A DNA stretch of 64,000 nucleotides. Origin: Escherichia coli. Lineage in GTDB: Bacteria > Pseudomonadota > Gammaproteobacteria > Enterobacterales > Enterobacteriaceae. Location of the stretch: NCBI RefSeq assembly GCF_003019035.1, contig NZ_CP027447.1. One strand, written 5' to 3'. Numbering within the stretch: the stretch's first letter is position 1; each line of letters starts with the position of its first letter. The notes beneath the pieces were generated by a model. It was not told the DNA's origin. It did no database searches and saw only the letters and a list, made by a program, of their open reading frames with translations. Positions 13,799 through 51,961 of this stretch are shown in pieces. Both the position numbers and the translations under genes were made by a program.

Positions 13799-13815
13799 AT
13801 GAGCGGAAAACCAGC
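13799..13815 (+). pseudogene. rhs start stub (ATG plus 14 nt) cut off by the H-repeat element
   Basis: atgagcggaaaaccagc matches the first 17 nt of the full-length rhs at 21550 (atgagcggaaaacccgc) at 15 of 17 positions; sits at the usual distance after the vgrG stop. Confidence 0.45.
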
Positions 13816-15106
13816 CAGGGAAAGATCATCAGAAGTACACTTTTTGTACTAAACAATTCGCATTTTATGTTTAAAAATTGAGATATTCCTCATTACCTGA
13901 AGCTGTTTTTTATTGCTTATACATGATCAAATACTCCTTACATAATTAAGGAGAACAAAATGGAACTTAAAAAATTGATGGAGCATATTTCTATTATCCC
14001 CGATTACAGACAAGCCTGGAAAGTGGAACATAAATTATCGGACATTCTACTGTTGACTATTTGTGCCGTTATTTCTGGTGCAGAAGGCTGGGAAGATATA
14101 GAGGATTTTGGGGAAACACATCTCGATTTTTTGAAGCAATATGGTGATTTTGAAAATGGTATTCCTGTTCACGATACCATTGCCAGAGTTGTATCCTGTA
14201 TCAGTCCTGCAAAATTTCACGAGTGCTTTATTAACTGGATGCGTGACTGCCATTCTTCAGATGATAAAGGCGTCATTGCAATTGATGGAAAAACGCTCCG
14301 GCACTCTTATGACAAGAGTCGCCGCAGGGGAGCGATTCATGTCATTAGTGCGTTCTCAACAATGCACAGTCTGGTCATCGGACAGATCAAGACGGATGAG
14401 AAATCCAATGAGATTACAGCTATCCCAGAACTTCTTAACATGCTGGATATTAAAGGAAAAATCATCACAACTGATGCGATGGGTTGCCAGAAAGATATTG
14501 CAGAGAAGATACAAAAACAGGGAGGTGATTATTTATTCGCTGTAAAAGGAAATCAGGGGCGGCTTAATAAAGCCTTTGAGGAAAAATTTCCACTGAAAGA
14601 ATTAAATAATCCAGAGCATGACAGTTACGCAATGAGTGAAAAGAGTCACGGCAGAGAAGAAATCCGTCTTCACATTGTTTGCGATGTCCCTGATGAACTT
14701 ATTGATTTCACGTTTGAATGGAAAGGTCTGAAGAAATTATGCGTGGCAGTCTCCTTTCGGTCAATAATAGCAGAACAAAAGAAAGAGCCAGAAATGACGG
14801 TCAGATATTATATCAGTTCTGCTGATTTAACCGCAGAGAAGTTCGCCACAGCAATCCGAAACCACTGGCACGTGGAGAATAAGCTGCACTGGCGTCTGGA
14901 CGTGGTAATGAATGAAGACGACTGCAAAATAAGAAGAGGAAACGCCGCAGAATTATTTTCAGGGATACGGCACATCGCTATTAATATTTTAACGAATGAT
15001 AAGGTATTCAAGGCAGGGTTAAGACGTAAGATGCGAAAAGCTGCCATGGACAGAAACTATCTCGCGTCAGTCCTTGCGGGGAGCGGGCTTTCGTAATCTT
15101 TCCCTG
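13816..15106 (+). mobile_element. H-repeat (ISAs1-family) insertion sequence, copy 1, about 1291 bp
   Basis: Terminal inverted repeats cagggaaagat… (13816) and …atctttccctg (ending 15106); encloses the transposase gene. Confidence 0.75.
13960..15096 (+). CDS. H-repeat-associated (ISAs1-family) transposase, 378 aa
   Basis: Track ORF; about 99% identical to the ORFs at 18738..19874 and 26492..27628. Confidence 0.85.
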
Positions 15107-16889
15107 GCTGCTGGAGTTCACGCGCGACCGCCTGCACCGGGAGACGGTGCGCAGCTTCGGCAGCATGGCAGGCAGTAATGCCGCATACGAACTGACCAGC
15201 ACATACACCCCCGCAGGCCAGTTACAGAGCCAGCACCTGAACAGCCTGGTATATGACCGTGACTACGGGTGGAGTGACAACGGCGACCTGGTGCGCATCA
15301 GCGGCCCGCGACAGACGCGGGAATACGGCTACAGCGCCACGGGCAGGCTGGAGAGTGTGCGCACCCTCGCACCGGACCTGGACATCCGCATCCCGTATGC
15401 CACGGACCCGGCGGGCAACCGGCTGCCGGACCCGGAGCTGCACCCGGACAGTACACTCACAGTGTGGCCGGATAACCGAATCACCGAAGACGCGCACTAC
15501 CTGTACCGTTACGATGAATACGGCAGGCTGACGGAGAAGACGGACCGCATCCCGGCGGGTGTGATACGGACGGACGACGAGCGGACCCACCACTACCGCT
15601 ACGACAGCCAGCACCGCCTGGTGTTCCACACGCGGATACAGCATGGCGAGCCACTGGTCGAGAGCCGCTACCTCTACGACCCGCTGGGACGGCGAATGGC
15701 AAAACGGGTCTGGCGGCGGGAGCGTGACCTGACGGGGTGGATGTCGCTGTCGCGTAAACCGGAGGAGACATGGTACGGGTGGGACGGCGACAGGCTGACG
15801 ACGGTGCAGACTGACACCACACGTATCCAGACGGTCTACCAGCCGGGGAGCTTCACGCCGCTCATCCGTATCGAGACAGAGAACGGCGAACGGGAGAAAA
15901 TGCAACGCCGCAGCCTGGCGGAGAAGTTACAGTCGGAAGGGAGTGAGGACGGTCACGGTGTGGTGTTCCCGGCTGAGCTGGTGAGGATGCTGGACAGGCT
16001 GGAGGAAGAAATCCGGGCAGACCGCGTGAGCAGTGAAAGCCGGGCGTGGCTTGCGCAGTGCGGGCTGACGGTGGAGCAACTGGCCAGACAGGTGGAGCCG
16101 GAATACACACCGGCGCGAAAAGTTCATTTTTACCACTGCGACCACCGGGGCCTGCCGCTGGCGCTCATCAGCGAAGACGGCAATACGGTGTGGAGCGGGG
16201 AGTATGATGAATGGGGCAACCAGCTTAATGAGGAGAACCCGCATCATGTGTATCAGCCATACCGCCTGCCGGGGCAGCAGTATGATGAGGAGTCGGGGCT
16301 GTACTATAACCGCAACCGGTACTATGATCCGTTGCAGGGGAGGTATATTACCCAGGATCCGATTGGGCCGGTGGGGGGGTGGAATCCCTATAGTTATGTG
16401 CTTATTAATCCAGCCCAGTTTATTGACCCAACAGGTTTAACTCAAGAGGACAATTGGACCTATGGTGAGGTAGGTAATAGCTGTGTTACGAGTCAACGCG
16501 ATTTTACTCCCCCGCCCGGACTTGCGGATATGAAAGCCAGCATTGGCGCTGCCTGCTCAAGAAACAATGCTTCCAGAAACTGCCACCCCGTAGATGGTAG
16601 TAATGCTTCTGCACCATCGGATAAAGCCGCATGGGAAAATATTCAAAATGCGACAAATGGTAAAGATTTATCTGGTGGTGGAAATATGTTTTGTGTAGGA
16701 AATGAGGACTGTGCGGTTGTTCATAGCTGTCGTGAAATAGTTAATGCTCGACACCCGGCAGGACGAGTGCGTGAACGTGTAACTCCGTTAACAACGTCAG
16801 GAACAGCAACGCTCAATGGAACAACAGTTTACTTTTATAATGATCCCCGGAATGGCAATTGTCCTGCTCACGAATATATTCCTCAATAA
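15107..16889 (+). pseudogene. N-terminally truncated rhs: 3' core (YD repeats) plus a distinct Cys-rich C-terminal tip
   Basis: Near-identical at nucleotide level to 23994..25260 of the full-length rhs; track ORF 15147..16889; tip after the DPxGL-type core boundary (…IDPTGL) is unrelated to the full-length tip. Confidence 0.75.
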
Positions 16890-16939
16890 AGAAAAGTGGC
16901 CAGACTAAGCTCTAGCCACATTTTTTGGAGATCCTTTTC

Positions 16940-17563
16940 ATGAAAAGGTTTTTTATAACATGTTGCGTTATGACATTATTTTTATTTGTTAAATGTAAAG
17001 CAGCGTGTGTAACTTCCTTATATGAGGTTCAGCAATCGCTCTTTACATACATTTATTTGATTAGACAAGACCCTGTTCATTTTGATTCATATATTAAGAA
17101 TGTGCATAACGAATTAAAAATATTCCATGATATTGATAAAGCAATGAATATAGCCTCAGATATGGTCAAAATTATTGATATAAAGACCCGTTTATCATTT
17201 AATAATGATTTATATATATTACAAGGGGAACGACAGTATGCAATAGTTAAGAGTGAAGGGGAAAGTAGTCAATTAAAATCATCAGCATTTATCATATCTA
17301 ATTACCCACTATTTAAAAACAAAGTTCTGTTAATTTTATCCGCTACTAGTCCCGTTCAGTTGGTTATATTGTCTTTTGATCAATGTCTTAATGTGGAGGT
17401 GTTATTTGATTCAATGTCTCCAGTTTTCGCTAAGTATAGAGAAGATATTAGTGCAACATTACCATTATGGAAGGTTATTTTGACAAAAAATGATATAGAA
17501 TTATATGAGTACCATAGAACAAATCCATACTCACTTAACAAATTATTGAGCATGTCAAAATAA
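16940..17563 (+). CDS. Putative cognate immunity protein with signal peptide, about 207 aa
   Basis: ATG at 16940 with GGAG ribosome-binding site; AT-rich; directly downstream of the rhs tip; N-terminal hydrophobic signal-like segment. Confidence 0.55.
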   Translation: MKRFFITCCVMTLFLFVKCKAACVTSLYEVQQSLFTYIYLIRQDPVHFDSYIKNVHNELKIFHDIDKAMNIASDMVKIIDIKTRLSFNNDLYILQGERQYAIVKSEGESSQLKSSAFIISNYPLFKNKVLLILSATSPVQLVILSFDQCLNVEVLFDSMSPVFAKYREDISATLPLWKVILTKNDIELYEYHRTNPYSLNKLLSMSK

Positions 17564-17743
17564 CGGTCAAGTATTCAACGTTGTAATATTATTCCTTTTG
17601 CTGAGTGTCTCGAACGGCTAAAGTTGACGTAAAATGCCACGTTTTGTGGGCAAACCGAATCGGTTAAAAAGCATGGTCCGGGAAAAGCTTAACATCAGCG
17701 CTATCGGTGCCAAATGTGCAGCAGGCCTTTCCAGCCTGATTAC

Positions 17744-18004
17744 CAGGGCAGGGCGGGATCGTGAATATTGTGATGCATATCACATGAACTCCTGGTTTTA
17801 ACTTATTATTTCGGTTAAAATTTAACCACTGAAATCATTAGGATTCGAGCAAAGGGACGGCATATGGATATTCAAAATTTACTGGATTATATTTCTATAA
17901 TTCCTGATTATCGTCAGCAAGGGAAAATAAGGCATAAATTGTCAGATATTTTATTGCTCACTATATGTGCTATTATTGCCGGTTCTGATGAATGGGAGGA
18001 TATT
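17744..18004 (+). mobile_element. Remnant A of an ISAs1-family element (left end plus 5' transposase), interrupted by remnant B
   Basis: IR-like end cagggcagggcgggatcgtg at 17744; transposase N-terminus [21 protein letters not shown]… from 17864. Confidence 0.5.
17864..18004 (+). pseudogene. ISAs1-family transposase 5' fragment (about 46 codons)
   Basis: Homologous to the N-terminus of the intact H-repeat transposases; ends where the next element's end begins. Confidence 0.5.
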
Positions 18005-18593
18005 CAGGGCAAGATCATGAAAATCGTGATGTAAATCACAATTTTCAACCTGGCTTTAACTCCTTCAGGAGATTAAAATTTAACCTATGGAATAACTAAA
18101 AAGATAAAAAAGGACGCCAGATGAGTATTCAAAGTTTGCTTGATTATATTTCAGTGTTCCCTGATATACGACAACAAGGAAAGGTTAAACATAAATTATC
18201 TGATATTTTGTTTCTCACCGTATGTGCAGTAATTGCAGGTGCCGATGAGTGGCAGGAAATTGAAGATTTTGGACATGAAAGACTGGAATGGCTAAAGAAA
18301 TATGGTGATTTTGATAATGGCATTCCGGTCGATGACACCATTGCACGCGTTGTGAGTAACATTGACAGTTTGGCCTTTGAAAAGATGTTTATTGAATGGA
18401 TGCAGGAGTGCCATGAAATCACTGATGGTGAAATTATAGCAATAGATGGAAAGACCATAAGAGGCTCCTTTGATAAGGGAAAAAGGAAAGGAGCAATCCA
18501 TATGGTGAGTGCATTCTCGACTGAAAATGGTGTTGTACTGGGGCAGGTGAAAACGGAAGCCAAAAGTAATGAGATTACAGCCATTCCAGAGTT
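18005..18593 (+). mobile_element. Remnant B of an ISAs1-family element, interrupted by intact copy 2
   Basis: IR-like end cagggcaagatcatgaaaatcg at 18005; transposase 5' ORF from 18121; homology stops at 18593 where copy 2 IR-L begins. Confidence 0.55.
18121..18593 (+). pseudogene. ISAs1-family transposase N-terminal fragment (about 158 codons, divergent paralog)
   Basis: Track ORF 18121..18630 reads through into the next element's end; roughly 60-70% identical by eye to the intact H-repeat transposase. Confidence 0.6.
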
Positions 18594-19884
18594 CAGGGAA
18601 AGATCATCAGAAGTACACTTTTTGTACTAAACAATTCGCATTTTATGTTTAAAAATTGAGATATTCCTCATTACCTGAAGCTGTTTTTTATTGCTTATAC
18701 ATGATCAAATACTCCTTACATAATTAAGGAGAACAAAATGGAACTTAAAAAATTGATGGAACATATTTCTATTATCCCCGATTACAGACAAGCCTGGAAA
18801 GTGGAACATAAATTATCGGATATTCTACTGTTGACTATTTGTGCCGTTATTTCGGGTGCAGAAGGCTGGGAAGATATAGAGGATTTTGGGGAAACACATC
18901 TCGATTTTTTGAAGCAATATGGTGATTTTGATAATGGTATTCCTGTTCACGATACCATTGCCAGAGTTGTATCCTGTATCAGTCCTGCAAAATTTCACGA
19001 GTGCTTTATTAACTGGATGCGTGACTGCCATTCTTCAGATGATAAAGACGTCATCGCAATTGATGGAAAAACACTCCGGCATTCTTATGACAAGAGTCGC
19101 CGCAGGGGAGCGATTCATGTCATTAGTGCGTTCTCAACAATGCACAGTCTGGTCATCGGACAGATCAGGACGGATGAGAAATCCAATGAGATCACAGCTA
19201 TCCCTGAACTTCTTAACATGCTGGATATTAAAGGAAAAATTATCACAACTGATGCAATGGGTTGCCAGAAAGATATTGCAGAGAAGATACAAAAACAGGG
19301 CGGTGATTATTTATTCGCTGTAAAAGGAAATCAGGGTCGGCTAAATAAAGCCTTTGAGGAAAAATTCCCACTGAAAGAATTAAATAATCCAGAACATGAC
19401 AGTTACGCAATGAGTGAAAAGAGTCACGGCAGAGAAGAAATCCGTCTTCACATTGTTTGCGATGTCCCTGATGAACTTATTGATTTCACGTTTGAATGGA
19501 AAGGTCTGAAGAAATTATGCGTGGCAGTCTCCTTTCGGTCAATAATAGCAGAACAAAAGAAAGAGCCAGAAATGACGGTCAGATATTATATCAGTTCTGC
19601 TGATTTAACCGCAGAGAAGTTCGCCACAGCAATCCGAAACCACTGGCACGTGGAGAATAAGCTGCACTGGCGTCTGGACGTGGTAATGAATGAAGACGAC
19701 TGCAAAATAAGAAGAGGAAACGCCGCAGAATTATTTTCAGGGATACGGCACATCGCTATTAATATTTTGACGAATGATAAGGTATTCAAGGCAGGGTTAA
19801 GACGTAAGATGCGAAAAGCTGCCATGGACAGAAACTATCTCGCGTCAGTCCTTGCGGGGAGCGGGCTTTCGTAATCTTGCCCTG
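18594..19884 (+). mobile_element. H-repeat (ISAs1-family) insertion sequence, copy 2, about 1291 bp
   Basis: IR-L cagggaaagatcatcag at 18594; IR-R …atcttgccctg ending 19884; same length as copy 1. Confidence 0.75.
18738..19874 (+). CDS. H-repeat-associated (ISAs1-family) transposase, 378 aa
   Basis: Track ORF; near-identical to copies 1 and 3. Confidence 0.85.
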
Positions 19885-19896
19885 CTTTGTAATGGT

Positions 19897-20079
19897 ATGG
19901 CAGGAGGATATGAATTTGCAGTAAGTAAATTTGGTCAGTCGGCCTATGATGCCGCACAGGAAAAAGCATTAAATAACTATATGGAATTTGAAATGTTAGA
20001 TTTATTACAAAGCATGGGAGAGAATGTCAATCCAGATGAATATAAGCAGGCGCATGATAGAGTTGTTAATCCAAATTGA
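19897..20079 (+). CDS. Small hypothetical protein, about 60 aa, possibly a toxin-tip remnant
   Basis: ATG at 19897 just after copy 2 IR-R; track ORF 19852..20079 starts inside the insertion sequence; ends 15 nt before the next gene's ATG. Confidence 0.3.
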   Translation: MAGGYEFAVSKFGQSAYDAAQEKALNNYMEFEMLDLLQSMGENVNPDEYKQAHDRVVNPN

Positions 20080-20093
20080 ATGCAGAGGGGAGT

Positions 20094-20657
20094 ATGTTAT
20101 TAAAACTGATAATGTTATTTTCAATATTTTTTATCCCGTTTTTGGCAGGTTGCAGTATGTTTGATGATGTTTTTGAGAAAAACTACTCATTGAGTTCTGT
20201 CGCCAGTTTTCCAGATGACGTTGATGAATTAAAAGAAATATGGTTTTTTTGTGAAAGATGTTTAAGTGATGAGCAGTGCGAAAATCATGACATTAAACAA
20301 TGTAGAGATGTAACTATTCCCGGTAGAGATGAAGCATTAAGTAAAGCTGTAGGCAGAGCCAATGTCGAAGCTGTTTACTTTCTTGTTGATGTGGCAAAAA
20401 CTGATGTCAATGGTATTACAGGTAAATATAAGGAAACACCATTAATTATTGCTGCATATTATGGAACTCAAGCACATCAGGATATAGCTGAATTTTTGCT
20501 ATTGCATGGGGCAGATATTAATAAAACTTACCCAGCCATTGGGCGAAATCCTCTAGGTGTCGCCAGATGGAAGCATAATGTCGATTTCGTTAATTTTCTA
20601 CTGAAGCATGGTGCTGAACCAGCAGTACATATGGGGTCGATTGAGAATAAAGAGTGA
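20094..20657 (+). CDS. Ankyrin-repeat lipoprotein, about 187 aa, immunity-like
   Basis: ATG at 20094 with GAGGGGA ribosome-binding site; lipobox FLAGC; ankyrin repeats (…TPLIIAAYYG…LLLHGADIN…). Confidence 0.6.
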   Translation: MLLKLIMLFSIFFIPFLAGCSMFDDVFEKNYSLSSVASFPDDVDELKEIWFFCERCLSDEQCENHDIKQCRDVTIPGRDEALSKAVGRANVEAVYFLVDVAKTDVNGITGKYKETPLIIAAYYGTQAHQDIAEFLLLHGADINKTYPAIGRNPLGVARWKHNVDFVNFLLKHGAEPAVHMGSIENKE

Positions 20658-21100
20658 GATTTAACAAAAATGCAATTCATGCTCTCGCCTTGGGTGACGG
20701 TATTGATACTGCTTTTAAGTGTTCAGGAAAAATGGAAAGTGGTAAACCCTTAAAATCTTCGGGCAAATGGGATTACTCTGTTGGTGGGACAAATGGTGCC
20801 TTTCTTTATCTTAAAGACTATTCAAATATTTTGACGGCTGGCCACACAGGAAATCTGGCAGTTACTTTTCTTGGAAGTTACAATGCTCAATATTCAATAA
20901 ACGGAAACTCTCTGGATGTAGTTGTAACAAATTCTTCAACGATACAATCAGCGACACATCCCCCAATCCTGGAGTATACAAAATGGTGGCAGGATAATAT
21001 TGGTAATCCTTTGGATAGAAAATTTCAAAAAGGTCCCACGTCCCCAAAAACACAAACCATAAATTTACACTTTGATTTGTCATGTGCGTGCAAAAAATGA
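20654..21100 (+). CDS. Hypothetical protein, 148 aa, no signal peptide
   Basis: Track ORF with GTG start overlapping the upstream stop (GTGA) and stop overlapping the downstream ATG; no recognisable domain. Confidence 0.35.
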   Translation: MRFNKNAIHALALGDGIDTAFKCSGKMESGKPLKSSGKWDYSVGGTNGAFLYLKDYSNILTAGHTGNLAVTFLGSYNAQYSINGNSLDVVVTNSSTIQSATHPPILEYTKWWQDNIGNPLDRKFQKGPTSPKTQTINLHFDLSCACKK

Positions 21101-21480
21101 AAATTTTATTTATGTTATTATTAATTATCTTGAGTGGATGTGATGGCGAAAATGATGCCAAATTTGTTGGGCAATGGCTTGCTGATATTGATGGTGATAT
21201 AAAATCAGAATTGATCGTGAAGGCAAATGGAATTTTTTATTTCAAGAATATGCCTATGGAGACAGTTTGTCGCGAGGATAAAACATATAAGGCTAATTTT
21301 TTCGGGGATTGGACTATTAATATTGACAATAGGATTGATATTTCAATGGATAATGTTAATTCTGAACGGTGTAATATTCCATCCTCGTATTTAATTAATG
21401 GGTTTTATGATGGTGGATATTTTTTATGTCAGAAAGGATTGTCTTTTTTCCAGACGGACCTGATGAGCCAGGTAATATGA
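21097..21480 (+). CDS. Small lipoprotein, about 127 aa, immunity-like
   Basis: ATG at 21097; lipobox ILSGC; AT-rich. Confidence 0.45.
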   Translation: MKILFMLLLIILSGCDGENDAKFVGQWLADIDGDIKSELIVKANGIFYFKNMPMETVCREDKTYKANFFGDWTINIDNRIDISMDNVNSERCNIPSSYLINGFYDGGYFLCQKGLSFFQTDLMSQVI

Positions 21481-21549
21481 TCATTTATATTAAACAATGA
21501 AAGTATTGATCGTGAGCAGATTAAATATATAAGAAATTAAGGAGATACC

Positions 21550-24500
21550 ATGAGCGGAAAACCCGCGGCACGCCAGGGTGATGCCACGCTGAAAGGCGGT
21601 CCGATAGTCCAGGGGTCAGCGGGGGTGCTGATAGGCGCGCCCACCGGCGTGGCGTGCTCGGTGTGTCCGGGCGGGATGACTTCGGGCAACCCGGTAAATC
21701 CGCTGCTGGGGGCGAAGGTGCTGCCCGGCGAGACGGACCTTGCCCTGCCCGGCCCGCTGCCGTTCATTCTCTCCCGCACCTACAGCAGCTACCGGACGAG
21801 GACGCCTGCCCCGGTGGGCGTTTTCGGCCCCGGCTGGAAAGCGCCTTCGGATATCCGCTTACAGCTACGTGATGACGCACTGATACTCAACGACAACGGC
21901 GGGCGGAGCATTCACTTTGAGCCGCTGCTGCCGGGGGAGGCGGTGTACAGCCGCAGCGAGTCAATGTGGCTGGTGCGCGGTGGTAAGGCAGCGCAGCCGG
22001 ACGGCCACACGCTGGCGCGACTGTGGGGGGCGCTGCCGCCGGATATCCGGTTAAGCCCGCATCTTTACCTGGCGACCAACAGCGCACAGGGGCCGTGGTG
22101 GATACTCGGCTGGTCAGAGCGGGTGCCGGGTACTGAGGACGTACTGCCAGCGCCGCTGCCGCCGTACCGGGTGCTTACCGGGCTGGCGGACCGCTTCGGG
22201 CAGACGCTGACGTACCGGCGTGAGGCCGCCGGTGACCTGGCCGGGGAAATCACCGGCGTGACGGACGGTGCCGGGCGGAAGTTCCGTCTGGTGCTGACCA
22301 CGCAGGCGCAGCGTGCGGAAGAGGCCCGCACCTCTTCGCTATCTTCTTCTGACCGTTCCCGCCCTCTCTCAGCCTCAGCGTTCCCCGACACACTGCCCGG
22401 TACGGAATACGGCCCCGACAGGGGCATCCGTCTTTCGGCGGTGTGGCTGATGCACGACCCGGCATACCCGGAAAGCCTGCCCGGTGCGCCACTGGCGCGG
22501 TACACGTATACGGAAGCCGGTGAACTGCTGGCGGTATATGACCGCAGCAATACGCAGGTGCGCGCTTTCACGTATGACGCGCAGCACCCGGGCCGGATGG
22601 TGGCGCACCGTTACGCGGGAAGGCCGGAGATGCGCTACCGCTACGACGATACGGGGCGGGTGGTGGAGCAACTGAACCCGGCAGGGTTAAGCTACCGCTA
22701 TCTTTATGAGCAGGACCGCATCACCATCACGGACAGCCTGAACCGGCGAGAGGTGCTGCATACAGAAGGCGGGGCCGGGCTGAAGCGGGTGGTGAAAAAA
22801 GAACTGGCGGACGGCAGCGTCACGCACAGCGGGTATGACGCGGCAGGAAGGCTCACGGCACAGACGGACGCGGCGGGACGGCAGACAGAGTACGGTCTGA
22901 ATGTGGTGTCAGGCGATATCACGGACATCACCACGCCGGACGGGCGGGAGACGAAATTTTACTATAACGACGGGAACCAGGTGACGGCAGTGGTGTCCCC
23001 GGACGGGCTGGAGAGCCGCCGGGCGTATGATGAGCGGGACAGGCTGGTAACGGAGACATCGCGCAGTGGGGACGTCATCCGGTATGCTTATGATAATCCG
23101 CACAGTGAATTACCGGCCACGACAACAGATGCGACGGGCAGCACCCGGCAGATGACCTGGAGCCGCTACGGGCAGTTGCTGGCGTTCACCGACTGCTCGG
23201 GCTACCAGACCCGCTATGAATACGACCGCTTCGGCCAGATGACGGCGGTCCACCGCGAGGAAGGCATCAGCCTTTACCGCCGCTATGACAACCGTGGCCG
23301 GTTAACCTCGGTGAAAGACGCACAGGCCCGTGAAACGCAGTATGAGTACAACGCCGCAGGCGACCTGACTGCCGTTATCACCCCGGATGGCAACCGGAGT
23401 GAGACACAGTACGATGGGTGGGGAAAGGCCATCAGCACCACGCAGGGCGGGCTGACGCGCAGTATGGAGTACGATGCTGCCGGACGTATCACCACGCTGA
23501 CTAACGAGAACGGCAGCCACAGCGACTTTAGTTACGATGCGCTGGACCGCCTGATACAGCAGGGCGGCTTTGACGGGCGGACGCAACGTTATCATTATGA
23601 CCTGACCGGAAAACTCACGCAGAGTGAAGATGAGGGGCTTGTCATCCTCTGGTACTACGATGAATCGGACCGTATTACTCACCGCACGGTAAACGGTGAA
23701 CCGGCAGAACAGTGGCGGTATGACGGCCACGGCTGGCTGAGAGAAATCAGCCACCTGAGCGAAGGCCACCGTGTTGCCGTCCACTATGGCTATGATAATA
23801 AAGGCCGCCTGACCAGTGAGCGCCAGACGGTGCATCACCCGGAGACGGGAGAGCTGCTCTGGCAGCATGAGACCGGACATGCGTACAACGAACAGGGGCT
23901 GGCAAACCGCGTCACGCCGGACAGTCTGCCGCCGGTGGAGTGGCTGACCTATGGTAGCGGTTATCTGGCAGGCATGAAGCTGGGCGGGACGCCGCTGCTG
24001 GAGTTCACGCGCGACCGCCTGCACCGTGAGACGGTGCGCAGCTTCGGCAGCATGGCAGGCAGTAATGCCGCATACGAACTGACCAGCACATACACCCCTG
24101 CAGGCCAGTTACAGAGTCAGCACCTGAACAGCCTGGTGTATGACCGTGACTACGGGTGGAATGACAACGGAGACCTGGTGCGCATCAGCGGCCCGCGACA
24201 GACGCGGGAATACGGCTACAGCGCCACGGGCAGGCTGGAGAGTGTGCGCACCCTCGCACCGGACCTGGACATCCGCATCCCGTATGCCACGGACCCGGCG
24301 GGCAACCGGCTGCCGGACCCGGAGCTGCACCCGGACAGTACACTCACAGTGTGGCCGGATAACCGCATCGCGGAGGATGCGCACTATGTCTACCGCCACG
24401 ATGAATACGGCAGGCTGACGGAGAAGACGGACCGCATCCCGGCGGGTGTGATACGGACGGACGACGAGCGGACCCACCACTACCACTACGACAGCCAGCA

Positions 24501-25803
24501 CCGCCTGGTGTTCTACACGCGGATACAGCATGGCGAGCCACTGGTCGAGAGCCGCTACGTCTACGACCCGCAGGGACGGCGAATGGCGAAACGGGTATGG
24601 CGGCGGGAGCGTGACCTGACGGGGTGGATGTCGCTGTCGCGTAAACCGGAGGTGACGTGGTACGGCTGGGACGGCGACCACCTGACGACGGTGCAGACCG
24701 ACAGCACACGTATCCAGACGGTATACGAGCCGGGAAGCTTCACACCGCTCATCCGCATCGAAACAGACAACGGCGAGCGGGAGAAAACGCAGCGGCGGAG
24801 CCTGGCGGAGAAGCTCCAGCAGGAAGGGAGCGAGGACGGACACGGTGTGGTGTTCCCGGCTGAACTGGTGAGGATGCTGGACAGGCTGGAGGAAGAAATC
24901 CGGGCAGACCGCGTGAGCGGTGAAAGCCGGACGTGGCTTGCACAGTGCGGGCTGGCGGTGGAGCAACTGGAAAAACAGGTGGAGCCGGAATACACGCCGG
25001 AACGCACACTGCATCTTTACCACTGCGACCACCGGGGACTGCCGCTGGCGCTTATCAGCGAAGACGGCAATACGGTGTGGAGCGCGGAGTATGATGAATG
25101 GGGAAACCTGCTTAATGAGGAGAACCCGCATCATGTGTATCAGTCATACCGTCTGCCGGGGCAGCAGCATGATGAGGAGTCGGGGCTGTATTATAACCGG
25201 AACCGGTACTATGACCCGCTACAGGGGAGGTATATCACCCAGGATCCAATCGGGCTAAGAGGTGAATGGAATCTGTATAAATATCCATTAAACCCTGTTC
25301 GGTTTATAGATTCTTTGGGTTTAAAATTCCATGTTAACGGTGATCCAAGTGATTTTAATCAGGCTGTTGAGTATTTAAAACAAGATTCACGAATGAAAGA
25401 AGCTATAGATTTTTTATCAAGCTCTGAAGAAACCATAAAGATAGAGTATATTGATGAAACCGACGTTAGATTTGACCCGGATAAAATGACTATATATTGG
25501 AATGGTAAGGCGGCTTTATTTTGTTCAACTGATTTAAAATCGAAATCACAATCACCTGCATTAGGTTTGGGGCATGAGTTTGCTCATGCGCACTTATATC
25601 TTATTGATAAGGATGGTTATATGGGGCTTGTGAGACGTGCGGATGAACAATATAAAAATAAAGAAGAGGCGAGAGTTATCACTTTAATTGAACAGCATGC
25701 GGCGAAAACTTTAGGTGAGTGTACCAGAACAGCATATAATGGAGTGTATTATCGTGTGAATACACCAACGCAGACGGCAACAATAAATGGCACGCCAGAA
25801 TAG
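21550..25803 (+). CDS. Full-length Rhs polymorphic toxin, 1417 aa: PAAR-like N-terminus, YD-repeat shell, HExxH-containing C-terminal tip
   Basis: Track ORF with AAGGAG ribosome-binding site; N-terminus [11 protein letters not shown]…; repeated YD motifs; core boundary …YITQDPIGL…IDSLGL; tip contains [10 protein letters not shown]. Confidence 0.9.
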
Positions 25804-25815
25804 TGAGATTTTTTT

Positions 25816-26265
25816 ATGATGAAATATTTGATGGTTTTATTGTCTCTATTTTCTGCTTCGGTATTGGGGATGGGGCGAGTGAATGAATTGTGTGGAATAG
25901 ATAGTGTGAAAACGATAGAAATAATTAATCTTCCAGCATATGTTACCACCTTAACCCCGCTTAGCAAGGAAGGTCTCAAGAGAATATACAAACATAAAGT
26001 GGTGGTGAATGGAGTTAGCGATTTTTATGCTGGTGAGATAATTGATTTATTGCAAATGAAGTATTTCAGGAAGGAGGAGAATAACGATATAAGATGGGGG
26101 GTTGACATTGTTTCGAATAAAAATAATAAATGTGAAATTTATTTTGATGGTTTTGGTGAATGTGGAAGTGTGAATGGCATTAACGTATGTTTTGAAAAAA
26201 ATGAAATGATAGATTGGATTAAAAAAGAAATCCCTTTTCTGTCGCAAGAAATAGGTGGTCTTTAA
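25816..26265 (+). CDS. Putative cognate immunity protein with signal peptide, 149 aa
   Basis: Track ORF 13 nt after the rhs stop; AT-rich; N-terminus MMKYLMVLLSLFSASVLG. Confidence 0.55.
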   Translation: MMKYLMVLLSLFSASVLGMGRVNELCGIDSVKTIEIINLPAYVTTLTPLSKEGLKRIYKHKVVVNGVSDFYAGEIIDLLQMKYFRKEENNDIRWGVDIVSNKNNKCEIYFDGFGECGSVNGINVCFEKNEMIDWIKKEIPFLSQEIGGL

Positions 26266-26322
26266 ATGGTAGGGCAATATTCAAAGACAGTATAGGTAAC
26301 TATTTGTATGGACATGTAAGGT

Positions 26323-27638
26323 CAGGGAAAGATCACGTAACGCTGCTCAGGGAAAGATCACGTAACGCTGCTTTTTTGTACTAAACAATCCGCATTTTAT
26401 GTTTAAAAATTGAGATATTCCTCATTACCTAAAGCTGTTTTTTATTGCTTATACATGATCAAATACTCCTTACATAATTAAGGAGAACAAAATGGAACTT
26501 AAAAAATTGATGGAACATATTTCTATTATCCCCGATTACAGACAAGCCTGGAAAGTGGAACATAAATTATCGGATATTCTACTGTTGACTATTTGTGCCG
26601 TTATTTCGGGTGCAGAAGGCTGGGAAGATATAGAGGATTTTGGGGAAACACATCTCGATTTTTTGAAGCAATATGGTGATTTTGATAATGGTATTCCTGT
26701 TCACGATACCATTGCCAGAGTTGTATCCTGTATCAGTCCTGCAAAATTTCACGAGTGCTTTATTAACTGGATGCGTGACTGCCATTCTTCAGATGATAAA
26801 GACGTCATCGCAATTGATGGAAAAACACTCCGGCATTCTTATGACAAGAGTCGCCGCAGGGGAGCGATTCATGTCATTAGTGCGTTCTCAACAATGCACA
26901 GTCTGGTCATCGGACAGATCAGGACGGATGAGAAATCCAATGAGATCACAGCTATCCCTGAACTTCTTAACATGCTGGATATTAAAGGAAAAATTATCAC
27001 AACTGATGCAATGGGTTGCCAGAAAGATATTGCAGAGAAGATACAAAAACAGGGCGGTGATTATTTATTCGCTGTAAAAGGAAACCAGGGGCGGCTAAAT
27101 AAAGCCTTCGAGGAAAAATTTCCGCTGAAAGAATTAAATAATCCAGAGCATGACAGTTACGCAATGAGTGAAAAGAGTCACGGCAGAGAAGAAATCCGTC
27201 TTCACATTTTTTGCGATGTCCCTGATGAACTTATTGATTTCACGTTTGAATGGAAAGGTCTGAAGAAATTATGCGTGGCAGTCTCCTTTCGGTCAATAAT
27301 AGCAGAACAAAAGAAAGAGCCAGAAATGACGGTCAGATATTATATCAGTTCTGCTGATTTAACCGCAGAGAAGTTCGCCACAGCAATCCGAAACCACTGG
27401 CACGTGGAGAATAAGCTGCACTGGCGTCTGGACGTGGTAATGAATGAAGACGACTGCAAAATAAGAAGAGGAAATGCAGCAGAATTATTTTCAGGGATAC
27501 GGCACATCGCTATTAATATTTTGACGAATGATAAGGTATTCAAGGCAGGGTTAAGACGTAAGATGCGAAAAGCAGCCATGGACAGAAACTATCTGGCGTC
27601 AGTCCTTGCGGGGAGCGGGCTTTCGTAATCTTTCCCTG
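26323..27638 (+). mobile_element. H-repeat (ISAs1-family) insertion sequence, copy 3, with a 25-bp tandem duplication at its left end
   Basis: cagggaaagatcacgtaacgctgct occurs twice in tandem (26323..26372); IR-R …atctttccctg ends at 27638. Confidence 0.7.
26492..27628 (+). CDS. H-repeat-associated (ISAs1-family) transposase, 378 aa
   Basis: Track ORF; near-identical to copies 1 and 2. Confidence 0.85.
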
Positions 27639-27744
27639 TTTGTTTATATAAATGCCAAGATATTCTTTCTCAAAATATTGACTTCAGATTAACCGTGTTC
27701 CACGCAAACAATTTTCAAACATTCATCAATAGATAAGGAATTCC

Positions 27745-49824: not shown

Positions 49825-50470
49825 GTCGAAAATGATTGTGCGCACCAAGTTTATTGATCGCGCCTGTCACTGGACCGTGGTGATTTGCTTCTTCCTGGTG
49901 GCGCTGTCCGGGATTTCGTTCTTCTTCCCGACGCTGCAATGGCTGACGCAAACCTTCGGTACGCCGCAGATGGGACGCATTTTGCACCCGTTCTTCGGCA
50001 TTGCGATTTTCGTCGCGCTGATGTTTATGTTTGTGCGTTTTGTGCATCACAACATCCCGGATAAGAAAGATATTCCGTGGCTGTTGAACATTGTCGAAGT
50101 ATTAAAAGGCAATGAGCACAAAGTGGCGGATGTCGGGAAGTACAACGCCGGGCAAAAGATGATGTTCTGGTCGATCATGAGCATGATTTTCGTGCTGCTG
50201 GTGACCGGGGTGATTATCTGGCGTCCGTACTTTGCGCAGTACTTCCCGATGCAGGTTGTTCGCTACAGCCTGCTGATTCACGCGGCTGCGGGTATCATCC
50301 TGATCCACGCCATCCTGATCCATATGTATATGGCATTCTGGGTGAAAGGATCGATTAAAGGGATGATCGAAGGGAAGGTGAGCCGTCGCTGGGCGAAGAA
50401 ACACCATCCACGCTGGTATCGTGAAATCGAGAAGGCAGAAGCGAAAAAAGAGAGTGAAGAAGGGATGTAA
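49817..50470 (+). CDS. fdnI: Formate dehydrogenase-N gamma subunit (cytochrome b556), 217 aa
   Basis: Internal ATG at 49817 overlapping the fdnH stop; track ORF 49775..50470. Confidence 0.85.
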
Positions 50471-50491
50471 TCTCTTTTGAACTTTAAGCTG

Positions 50492-50523
50492 AAAATGGCG
50501 CTTTAAGAAGCGCCATTTTTTTA
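50492..50523. terminator. Bidirectional intrinsic terminator between fdnI and yddM
   Basis: Stem aaaatggcgc / gcgccatttt with 8-nt loop, flanked by an A-run and a T-run. Confidence 0.5.
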
Positions 50524-50805
50524 TTGCGTAACCAGACGGCGCAGTCGCGACACATCCACCGTTTTTTCAGCCTCTGCCAGGCTCCAGGCGTTTTGCAGAT
50601 TCAGCCACATTTGCGGCGAACTGCCGATCACCACGGAAAGTTTAATTGCCATTTCTGGCGTCAAAGCTGCTTTTCCGGTCAGCAATCGGCTTGCCGTTGA
50701 GGGAGCAATTTCCATTGCTCTGGCAAACTCGCGCAGGCTGACATTAAGTTCGTCCAGTGATTCCTGAATAATGTCCCCCGGGCGGGGATGATTGGCCATT
50801 TTCAT
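50521..50805 (-). CDS. yddM: HigA-like helix-turn-helix antitoxin-type regulator, 94 aa
   Basis: Internal ATG of track ORF 50521..50883; HTH (…[27 protein letters not shown]…). Confidence 0.6.
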
Positions 50806-50950
50806 TAGTGTCTTTACTCTCAGTAGCGTTCCTTCACCAGGAACACTATCATTATTGTTCCTTCCTACGCAACAATAATCCATTTAGCCATTTCATGTTG
50901 GAGAGAGTGCGATGCTGCGACCCGAACATGGCAGTCGCAGCAAAGGCCTC

Positions 50951-51961
50951 TTAGTGACGGAAATCAATCACCATGCGGCCACGGATTTTGCCTTCTTCCA
51001 TCTCGGTAAAGATGGTGTTGATGTCCGCTAACGGACGCAGGGCGACTTTCGGCACCACTTTGCCTTCGGCGGCAAACTGGAAGGCTTCAGTTAAATCCTG
51101 GCGCGTGCCGACCAGCGAACCGACCACTTCAATACCATCCAGCACAAGGCGTGGGATATCCAGGCTCATAGACTCCGGCGGCAGACCGACTGCCACAACA
51201 CGCCCGCCTGCACGGACAGCATCAACTGCCGAGTTAAACGCAGCTTTAGCTACCGCTGTCACCACTGCTGCGTGAGCGCCACCAGTTTTCTCCTGCACAA
51301 TTTTGGCGGCGTCTTCGGTGCGTGAGTTAATCGCTAAATCAGCGCCCATTTCGGTTGCCAGTTTTAACTGCTCATCATTGACATCAATGGCGATCACTTT
51401 CGCGTTAAAGACATTCTTCGCGTATTGCAGGGCGAGGTTACCCAGACCGCCAAGACCGTAGATAGCAATCCACTGCCCTGGACGAATTTTTGACAGCTTC
51501 ACCGCTTTGTAGGTGGTGACCCCCGCACAGGTAATGCTGCTGGCCGCCGCCGAGTCCAGGCCATCGGGCACTTTTACCGCGTAATCGGCGACCACGATGC
51601 ATTCTTCAGCCATCCCGCCATCAACGCTGTATCCGGCGTTTTTAACAGAACGGCAGAGGGTTTCGTTACCACTATTACAGTATTCGCAATGACCGCATCC
51701 TTCGTAAAACCACGCCACGCTGGCACGATCGCCTGGTTTTAATGAGGTGACACCTGGGCCAACTTCTGCCACTACACCAATACCTTCGTGTCCCAGAATT
51801 ACGCCGGTTTTGTCACCAAAATCGCCATTCTTAACATGAAGATCGGTATGACATACACCACAACACTCCATTTTCAGCAGGGCTTCGCCATGTTTCAGTG
51901 AGCGCAGTGTTTTATCCGTAACGTCAACATGATGATCCTTCGTAACAACTGCAGCCTTCAT
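50951..51961 (-). CDS. adhP: Zn-dependent alcohol dehydrogenase (propanol-preferring), 336 aa
   Basis: Internal ATG (reverse complement of 51959..51961) with AGGAGG ribosome-binding site; GHEGIG and GLGGLG motifs. Confidence 0.85.

Follow-up and report, generated by a model that had tools for sequence, protein, structure and literature searches.

YddM of Escherichia coli: Probably the Orphan HigA Antitoxin of a Chromosomal higBA Operon That Lost Its Toxin Gene

Described HigBA Systems and Solitary Antitoxins

The HigB-HigA system of the Proteus vulgaris plasmid Rts1 (structures 4MCT, 4MCX and 6CHV) combines a HigB toxin of family PF05015 with an Xre-type helix-turn-helix antitoxin, HigA, the two genes standing in reverse order. 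HigA dimers bind two operators, O1 and O2, repressing transcription (PMC12266136). In the Rts1-type hig promoter, which we read from an IncT plasmid carrying Rts1-type higBA, the palindromes are TATTGCAC...GTGTAATA and TATTACAC...ATGTAATA, 30 bp apart around TATAGT. The yddM locus of E. coli, the subject of this paper, has the same toxin and antitoxin families and in its ancestral form the same gene order, and like Rts1 it has two palindromic operators of about 19-21 bp, putative in its case, that lie 29-30 bp apart and bracket the -10 element. Whereas Rts1 is plasmid-borne, the yddM locus is chromosomal and vertically inherited, and in the DNA analysed here it is toxin-less. The two antitoxins are 40% identical and the half-sites differ (TATTACA/TGTAATA in Rts1, TGTTCC/GGAACA for YddM), which fits this degree of identity.

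In 2020 Bustamante and Vidal listed, in the AIEC strain NRG857c, the pair TA20 ('ParE-2/HigA-2', genes of 279 and 285 nt), whose toxin is shared with CFT073; strains HS and K-12 encode only the antitoxin partner at this locus (PMC7232551). This phylogroup-B2-type higB-yddM pair (CFT073, NRG857c TA20, UTI89, APEC O18) occupies the same adhP-[higB]-yddM-fdnI locus as the yddM studied here, with an identical YddM and the same operator half-sites and -10 block. The DNA analysed here differs from it in being without the 279-nt higB, in its spacer (145 bp as against 185 bp plus the gene), in the sequence 5' of O1 and in the ribosome-binding region, and in the absence of the U-tract after the adhP hairpin.

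K-12 has one other orphan HigA-family gene, that of YbaQ ('HigA-1', the partner of ParE-1 in TA19 of NRG857c), a distant paralogue of 113 aa at a different locus (PDB 2EBY against YddM, 5.6e-9), where some pathogenic strains have the toxin or its pseudogene and K-12 and HS have the antitoxin alone (PMC7232551). YbaQ, too, is a DNA binder validated by ChIP-exo (PMC6237786). Orphan antitoxins regarded as degraded toxin-antitoxin systems or as anti-addiction modules, in a survey of Klebsiella pneumoniae and in the chromosomal ccd of Erwinia, were likewise kept after decay of the toxin (PMC7354431).

That K-12 has the antitoxin alone and that the toxin occurs in pathogenic strains is thus already published (PMC7232551), and the feature is an ordinary one. 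Our additions are incremental: population frequencies, the polarity given by outgroups, an operator footprint with Rts1-like layout and the constraint on the orphan.

The yddM Gene and Its Neighbors

The sequence analysed, called the window throughout, is a stretch of 64,000 nucleotides (64 kb) that includes the E. coli fdnGHI-yddM-adhP-maeA region; a 721-bp query taken from it (50380-51100) is 100% identical to strain SCU-301. The gene and its terminator lie as follows.

50521-50805, minus strand: yddM coding sequence, 94 aa, ending in RLVTQ; HigA-family (Xre helix-turn-helix) antitoxin whose partner toxin is absent from this genome segment
50491-50520, both strands: bidirectional terminator hairpin serving fdnGHI (plus) and yddM (minus), abutting the yddM stop codon

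A reading made from the letters alone (the sequence-only reading) had called the product of yddM an HTH antitoxin-type protein, and this is borne out. YddM matches TIGR02607 (antidote_HigA) with 93.7 bits (cutoff 47.7) over model positions 1-80 of 81 and Pfam HTH_3 (Cro/C1-type helix-turn-helix) with 39.1 bits; P. vulgaris HigA (4MCX_A) matches it at 1e-18, and the 'antitoxin higa' of PDB entries 2ICP and 2ICT is YddM itself, with 94 of 94 residues identical. That structure was reportedly solved in 2010. In a review 2ICP/2ICT is named 'YddM from E. coli CFT073' (PMC3968373). The annotation is yddM or 'HigA family addiction module antitoxin', WP_000781370.1, in all E. coli records fetched except one (L054, WP_001595745.1). 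An extended ORF of 120 aa (50521-50883) was considered as the true gene and rejected: the extension is unconserved and overlaps the putative operators, and the crystallised protein has 94 aa.

In the window yddM is monocistronic, lying between the adhP hairpin and the bidirectional terminator, and does not belong to a two-gene operon with a shared promoter. Its Shine-Dalgarno sequence is weak. The RNA of the terminator hairpin folds with -17.6 kcal/mol (z = -3.2) and -16.2 kcal/mol (z = -4.2) on the two strands, and a U run follows on each.

The fdnI-yddM spacer of the window (50471-50520) is 50 bp long and consists of this single terminator. K-12-like strains (loci L003, 691-918, and L004, 691-1097) have one or two additional units of about 179 bp there, made of REP-like sequence (GCCGGATGCGGCGTGAACGCCTTATCCGGCCTAC-type) and a duplicate of the terminator hairpin, and E. 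coli 19KM1803 (NZ_CP151017.1) has an annotated IS200C transposase (IS200/IS605 family) within the fdnI-yddM-adhP stretch. Elsewhere the window contains an Rhs element (13800-27700) with a 1417-aa Rhs ORF (21550-25803; RHS_repeat, DUF6531 and RHS core), an Rhs-core fragment ORF (15147-16889) and three copies, at 13960, 18738 and 26492, of an ORF for a 378-aa DDE_Tnp_1 transposase (H-repeat/ISAs1-like), about 99% identical over a repeated 300 nt.

Absence of a Toxin Gene From the Window

Since adhP ends at 50951, the space in which a toxin gene upstream of yddM would have to lie is short.

50806-50950, minus strand: adhP-yddM spacer, 145 bp; the former higB-yddM operon in its toxin-less haplotype, lacking all of the 279-nt higB ORF

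The claim that these 145 bp hold no HigB/RelE-like toxin ORF withstood the all-frame search of 50806..50950, which found neither a conserved toxin ORF nor a degenerate remnant: there are only chance ORFs of 25-48 aa, and the best six-frame Smith-Waterman score against HigB is 21, below the shuffle mean of 25.4 (sd 3.9), with 465 of 500 composition-matched shuffles of the spacer scoring at least as high as the real one. When the last 40 nt of the spacer were aligned with higB as nucleotides, the score was at or below that of shuffled controls. A tblastn search with HigB of the whole 64-kb window gave a best E of 0.11. The toxin gene that would make up a complete type II higBA system is therefore missing from the spacer and from the whole 64-kb window. 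Both parts of the description of yddM as a solitary 'antitoxin-like regulator' stand. For toxin-less K-12, DNA binding by YddM in vivo has been reported by ChIP-exo (PMC6237786). To this the comparison with higBA loci of other genomes adds that the solitude of yddM is, as judged from the sequences set out below, secondary, having come about through loss of higB.

higB at the Orthologous Site

The comparison set comprised 5426 complete E. coli genomes. In 5413 of them the fdnI-yddM-adhP locus was found (13 gave no match), one match (H40) retaining fdnI alone, and in 1331 of the 5426 higB lies, intact or frameshifted, between adhP and yddM. At 279 nt it encodes 92 aa (MIMNFRHKGL...ILDYEDYH) and is annotated 'type II toxin-antitoxin system RelE/ParE family toxin'. 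The HigB of APEC O18 matches PF05015 (HigB-like_toxin) with 63 bits and P. vulgaris HigB (4MCT_B) at 1e-31, the latter match taking in the LHPL motif and the DYEDYH of the C-terminus. The coupling of yddM to an upstream HigB (PF05015) gene, missing from the window, is present at the orthologous locus: in APEC O18 the 92-aa ORF is directly upstream of yddM and its TGA overlaps the yddM ATG (TGATG). Such an overlap is the classic reverse-order hig arrangement.

In evenly spaced samples, a 278-nt copy of higB accounts for about 40% of the genomes with a toxin gene (16 of 40 rows in one sample, 12 of 30 in another), and PGAP flagged it as frameshifted in both copies fetched, one of them from O25b:H4-ST131. 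A further variant of 270 nt, with a 9-nt in-frame deletion, is annotated as an intact toxin of 89 aa, WP_000605680.1 (E. coli A3, L052, and H158).

A 51-nt segment specific for the toxin-less allele occurs, at 95% identity or more and in one copy each, in 4080 of the 5426 genomes, and these make up the exact complement of the genomes with the toxin gene. Toxin-less alleles thus form one haplotype class, common to K-12 MG1655 and O157:H7. In E. coli, higB is thus deleted in about 75% of the genomes, frameshifted in about 10% and apparently intact in about 15%. By blastn, at a sensitivity of about 65-70%, higB-like DNA was detected in 1354 genomes and never in more than one chromosomal place; only about 24 toxin-less genomes had a match, and these were plasmid copies.

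E. coli O157:H7 TR01 (L047, 801-946) has a mosaic spacer of 145 nt, the usual toxin-less length, in which the adhP hairpin is followed by sequence of the toxin-bearing type, O1 is of the toxin-less type, and 47 nt match the 3' end of higB without a difference. Other O157:H7 genomes carry the ordinary toxin-less allele, and the mosaic could be a recombinant or an artefact of assembly or polishing.

Direction of Change

In an outgroup scan with one genome per species and fdnI as DNA synteny marker, syntenic higB-yddM (adhP upstream and/or fdnI downstream) was found in E. albertii, in representatives of three further Escherichia species and in about 12 Citrobacter species; in a Pluralibacter, an Enterobacter and another Enterobacteriaceae genome higB-yddM adjoins fdnI. 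Because the pair stands at the syntenic site in the outgroups, the two-gene state is taken to be ancestral, and the window carries a derived deletion. The relatives carry the toxin, as is to be expected of an orphan antitoxin, and the toxin-less haplotype looks like one derived event when its sequences are compared.

Decay of the toxin gene with an intact antitoxin gene is not confined to this deletion and has occurred independently in other genomes. In Citrobacter sp. FP75 higB has an internal deletion, in C. portucalensis and Xenorhabdus lircayensis it is frameshifted, as in E. coli ST131, and in Chimaeribacter californicus and X. khoisanae it is reduced to the last 19-29 codons. Theory predicts that the toxin decays first. 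The order is expected because prior loss of the antitoxin would be lethal.

Anatomy of the Deletion Scar

Two features delimit the part of the spacer in which the toxin-less and the toxin-bearing haplotype differ.

50914-50941, minus strand: adhP 3' hairpin, GCTGCGAC ... GTCGCAGC; RNA fold -23.5 kcal/mol, z = -3.6
50805-50810, minus strand: CACTAA, directly before the yddM ATG and overlapping it; corresponds to the final His codon plus stop of higB (CAC TAA/TGA)

The two haplotypes correspond in every base position from the stop codon of adhP to the end of the hairpin. The following 46 nt, including the U-tract CUGUUUUG of the toxin-bearing alleles, are missing from the toxin-less allele; over the next 36 nt the haplotypes are only about 50% identical, and then the operator block aligns again. 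Between the last half-site and the yddM ATG there are 22 nt in the toxin-less allele as against 12 nt plus higB in the toxin-bearing one. At the junction, where E. coli E69 has CACTAATG and others in the alignment have CACTGATG, CACTAA is the only recognisable trace of higB, and by itself it is too short for statistical significance.

The end-points of the deletion fit about equally well an ATGAA microhomology with loss of 272 bp and a GAG microhomology with loss of 267 bp plus a 1-nt indel; the break-points cannot be mapped to the base from these alignments. Because the haplotypes also differ 5' of O1, where the toxin-less one is 46 bp shorter and identity is about 50% over 36 nt, the scar requires at least two mutational steps. 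The 36-nt segment 5' of O1 that is specific for the toxin-less allele has no second copy in any of the 5426 E. coli genomes and no convincing match within the toxin-bearing locus.

With the U-tract lost, adhP transcription may read through into yddM in this strain, as the comparison of window positions 50895-50953 with positions 1612-1670 of a toxin-bearing locus (L002) suggests. The junction left by the loss of higB also contains an ACA triplet (50809-50811), 6 nt upstream of the yddM AUG, which is absent from the toxin-bearing alleles (TATCACTGATG). A study of the MazF regulon lists yddM with the value 6 (PMC5001579), a figure that we take for the distance in nucleotides from an ACA cleavage site to the start codon that follows it.

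Putative Operators and Promoter

Read on the yddM strand the spacer contains ...A TTGTTGC GTAGGAA GGAACAA TAAT GATAGT GTTCC TGGTGAA GGAAC G..., in which the following elements can be recognised.

50857-50874, minus strand: putative operator O1, TGTTGC-GTAGGAA-GGAAC(A); exact pattern match, inverted repeat I4
50872-50867, minus strand: -35-like TTGCGT, overlapped by O1
50845-50850, minus strand: -10-like GATAGT, between O1 and O2, 16 nt downstream of TTGCGT
50828-50845, minus strand: putative operator O2, TGTTCC-TGGTGAA-GGAAC; exact pattern match, inverted repeat I2

Both putative operators are 18-bp palindromes, 29 bp apart from center to center. The pattern TGTTSC-N7-GGAAC has exactly two matches without mismatch in the 64 kb, both in the spacer; the sole other match, at 20450, has one mismatch and is at chance level. 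When the spacer of the window was aligned with the corresponding higB upstream regions of 24 other genomes (25 sequences, about ten genera), the four half-sites and a 'TgaTA' block between them proved to be at least 70-90% conserved, and the 7-nt spacers and the sequence further 5' varied freely. In Chimaeribacter and Erwinia the middle block reads TATACT or TATGAT, a clear -10. Two conserved palindromes thus flank a -10-like element, which is the layout of the Rts1 Phig promoter.

A strict scan for sigma-70 consensus promoters and terminators recognised neither a promoter in the spacer nor either of the two hairpins; the features of the control region rest instead on conservation across genera, on RNA folding and on published work. 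Genomic SELEX has placed a constitutive RpoD promoter in the yddM-adhP spacer of toxin-less K-12 (PMC3946193). In the same background a ChIP-exo study confirmed 10 of 16 candidates as in vivo DNA binders, most of them with 3-25 sites, and lists YddM with target genes and a MEME motif; from this listing, YddM is one of the 10 confirmed binders (PMC6237786).

The control region shows some variation among toxin-less E. coli. Perfect 9-bp inverted repeats (ATTATTGTT / AACAATAAT; window 50851-50879) enclose the 11-bp core of O1, and in some toxin-less strains (L048, L049) the core is exactly inverted, from GCGTAGGAAGG to CCTTCCTACGC. The shortened alignment expected for this inversion was seen in about 4 of 15 toxin-less rows sampled at even spacing; going by these alignments, the inversion is a small natural flip of a quasi-palindromic putative operator. 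In one strain, E. coli EC571 (L051; about 50833-50861), a 29-bp deletion between two GAAGGAAC repeats has left a hybrid of the left O1 half and the right O2 half, with loss of the -10-like element between them; yddM itself is intact.

Proposed Origin and Function of the Orphan

We propose that yddM encodes the orphan HigA, a putative autorepressor, of a higBA operon that has lost its toxin gene and kept its putative operators, and give this reading a probability of roughly 0.85. YddM would be the surviving antitoxin of an old chromosomal type II higB-higA operon of reverse order, which in Escherichia and Citrobacter has its place between adhP and fdnI. The lineage of the window, to which about 75% of complete E. 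coli genomes belong, would have lost the whole higB ORF through a single deletion of about 270 bp, by which the hig promoter/operator region was fused directly to yddM. A YddM dimer would still bind O1 and O2 on either side of the -10 and repress its own transcription, as Rts1 HigA does at its O1 and O2; by this analogy autorepression via the putative O1 and O2 is the most likely mode of action. Having no toxin to neutralise, YddM would persist as a small Xre-type DNA-binding regulator. Binding and neutralisation of its cognate HigB is expected of a member of the HigA family; neither a structure of a HigB-YddM complex nor toxicity-rescue data were found in the literature searched.

The antitoxin ORF is intact and constrained. 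Among nine toxin-less alleles yddM has 17 segregating sites, all 17 synonymous, and the protein is the same in all nine; dS between toxin-less strains is about 0.08-0.11, and dN/dS against Citrobacter is 0.04-0.07. By these substitution patterns YddM is under purifying selection. Toxin-bearing and toxin-less alleles show no fixed differences in yddM, which indicates that recombination mixes them, so that part of the selection signal could come from toxin-bearing backgrounds.

That yddM is a functionless leftover whose decay is still to come would be understandable in view of the loss of the toxin and with it of the canonical job; some strains get by with an inversion or a 29-bp deletion in the control region, and there are a few genomes without yddM (the 13 without match, and H40 with only fdnI). 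Yet under neutrality about 75% of the 17 polymorphisms should be nonsynonymous, and the exclusively synonymous sites and low dN/dS argue against a decaying relic, as do a protein identical across strains at the dS values given above, a locus retained in 5413 of 5426 genomes, a haplotype segment at least 95% identical in all 4080 toxin-less ones and the DNA binding in vivo reported by ChIP-exo (PMC6237786). We regard a neutral leftover as very unlikely. Still less credence, next to none, is due to a toxin that escaped notice, whether in the spacer, where its ORF would be small or degenerate, or in another place, to which higB would have been relocated: nothing was found that speaks for it, the spacer ORFs of 25-48 aa being as expected by chance, whereas the six-frame scores stay under the shuffled controls, the 64-kb window has no HigB-like match, and the toxin-less genomes are absent from the 1354 with a blastn match to higB, save for the roughly 24 with plasmid copies.

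After the loss of its toxin YddM may have been retained for the control of other chromosomal genes, for instance stress-response genes, beyond its own promoter. Several observations agree with this: YddM is among the ChIP-exo-confirmed binders of K-12 (PMC6237786), genetic-interaction profiles tie yddM to cspABE and oxyR (PMC9283627), the Keio yddM deletion is hypersusceptible to epetraborole (PMC12457515), and all polymorphisms in the toxin-less alleles are synonymous. But the epetraborole phenotype is uncomplemented, and the exact operator pattern occurs in the 64 kb only at the promoter of yddM itself, the match at 20450 being at chance level. We consider such a wider regulatory role a tentative possibility; it is compatible with the orphan-HigA reading and not exclusive of it. 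The selection on yddM could also reflect immunity, the orphan being kept to neutralise the HigB of plasmids or phages and thus to protect the cell from post-segregational killing, as has been proposed for orphan antitoxins in general (PMC7354431), and HigB/HigA modules of this family are indeed found on 538 plasmid records, 99 of them from Escherichia. However, genuine plasmid HigB is at most 59% identical to the chromosomal toxin and plasmid HigA at most 57% to YddM, the identity to Rts1-type HigA being the 40% given above, and blastn detected plasmid higB in no more than about 24 of the 5426 E. coli genomes. These sequence comparisons lend no support to an anti-addiction role, which appears unlikely.

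Returning to the orphan HigA with retained operators, it is conceivable, though we hold it to be doubtful, that selection has kept YddM in about 75% of E. coli long after loss of the toxin through an acquired host function, be it a small stress-linked regulon or immunity against incoming elements that carry HigB. The control region may still be in the process of re-tuning, with the inversion of the O1 core, the loss of the adhP U-tract, which would permit read-through, and the new MazF ACA site at the junction.

Significance

For annotation, yddM is best read as 'orphan HigA'; beyond such housekeeping the importance of the finding is slight. The locus is a clean and well-populated natural example of the expected order of decay of chromosomal toxin-antitoxin systems, with a series that runs from the frameshift in ST131-type strains via internal deletion and truncation in other genera to deletion of the whole gene in most E. 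coli, and across all these states of higB the antitoxin and its putative operators persist. This makes it a convenient system for asking why orphan antitoxins persist.
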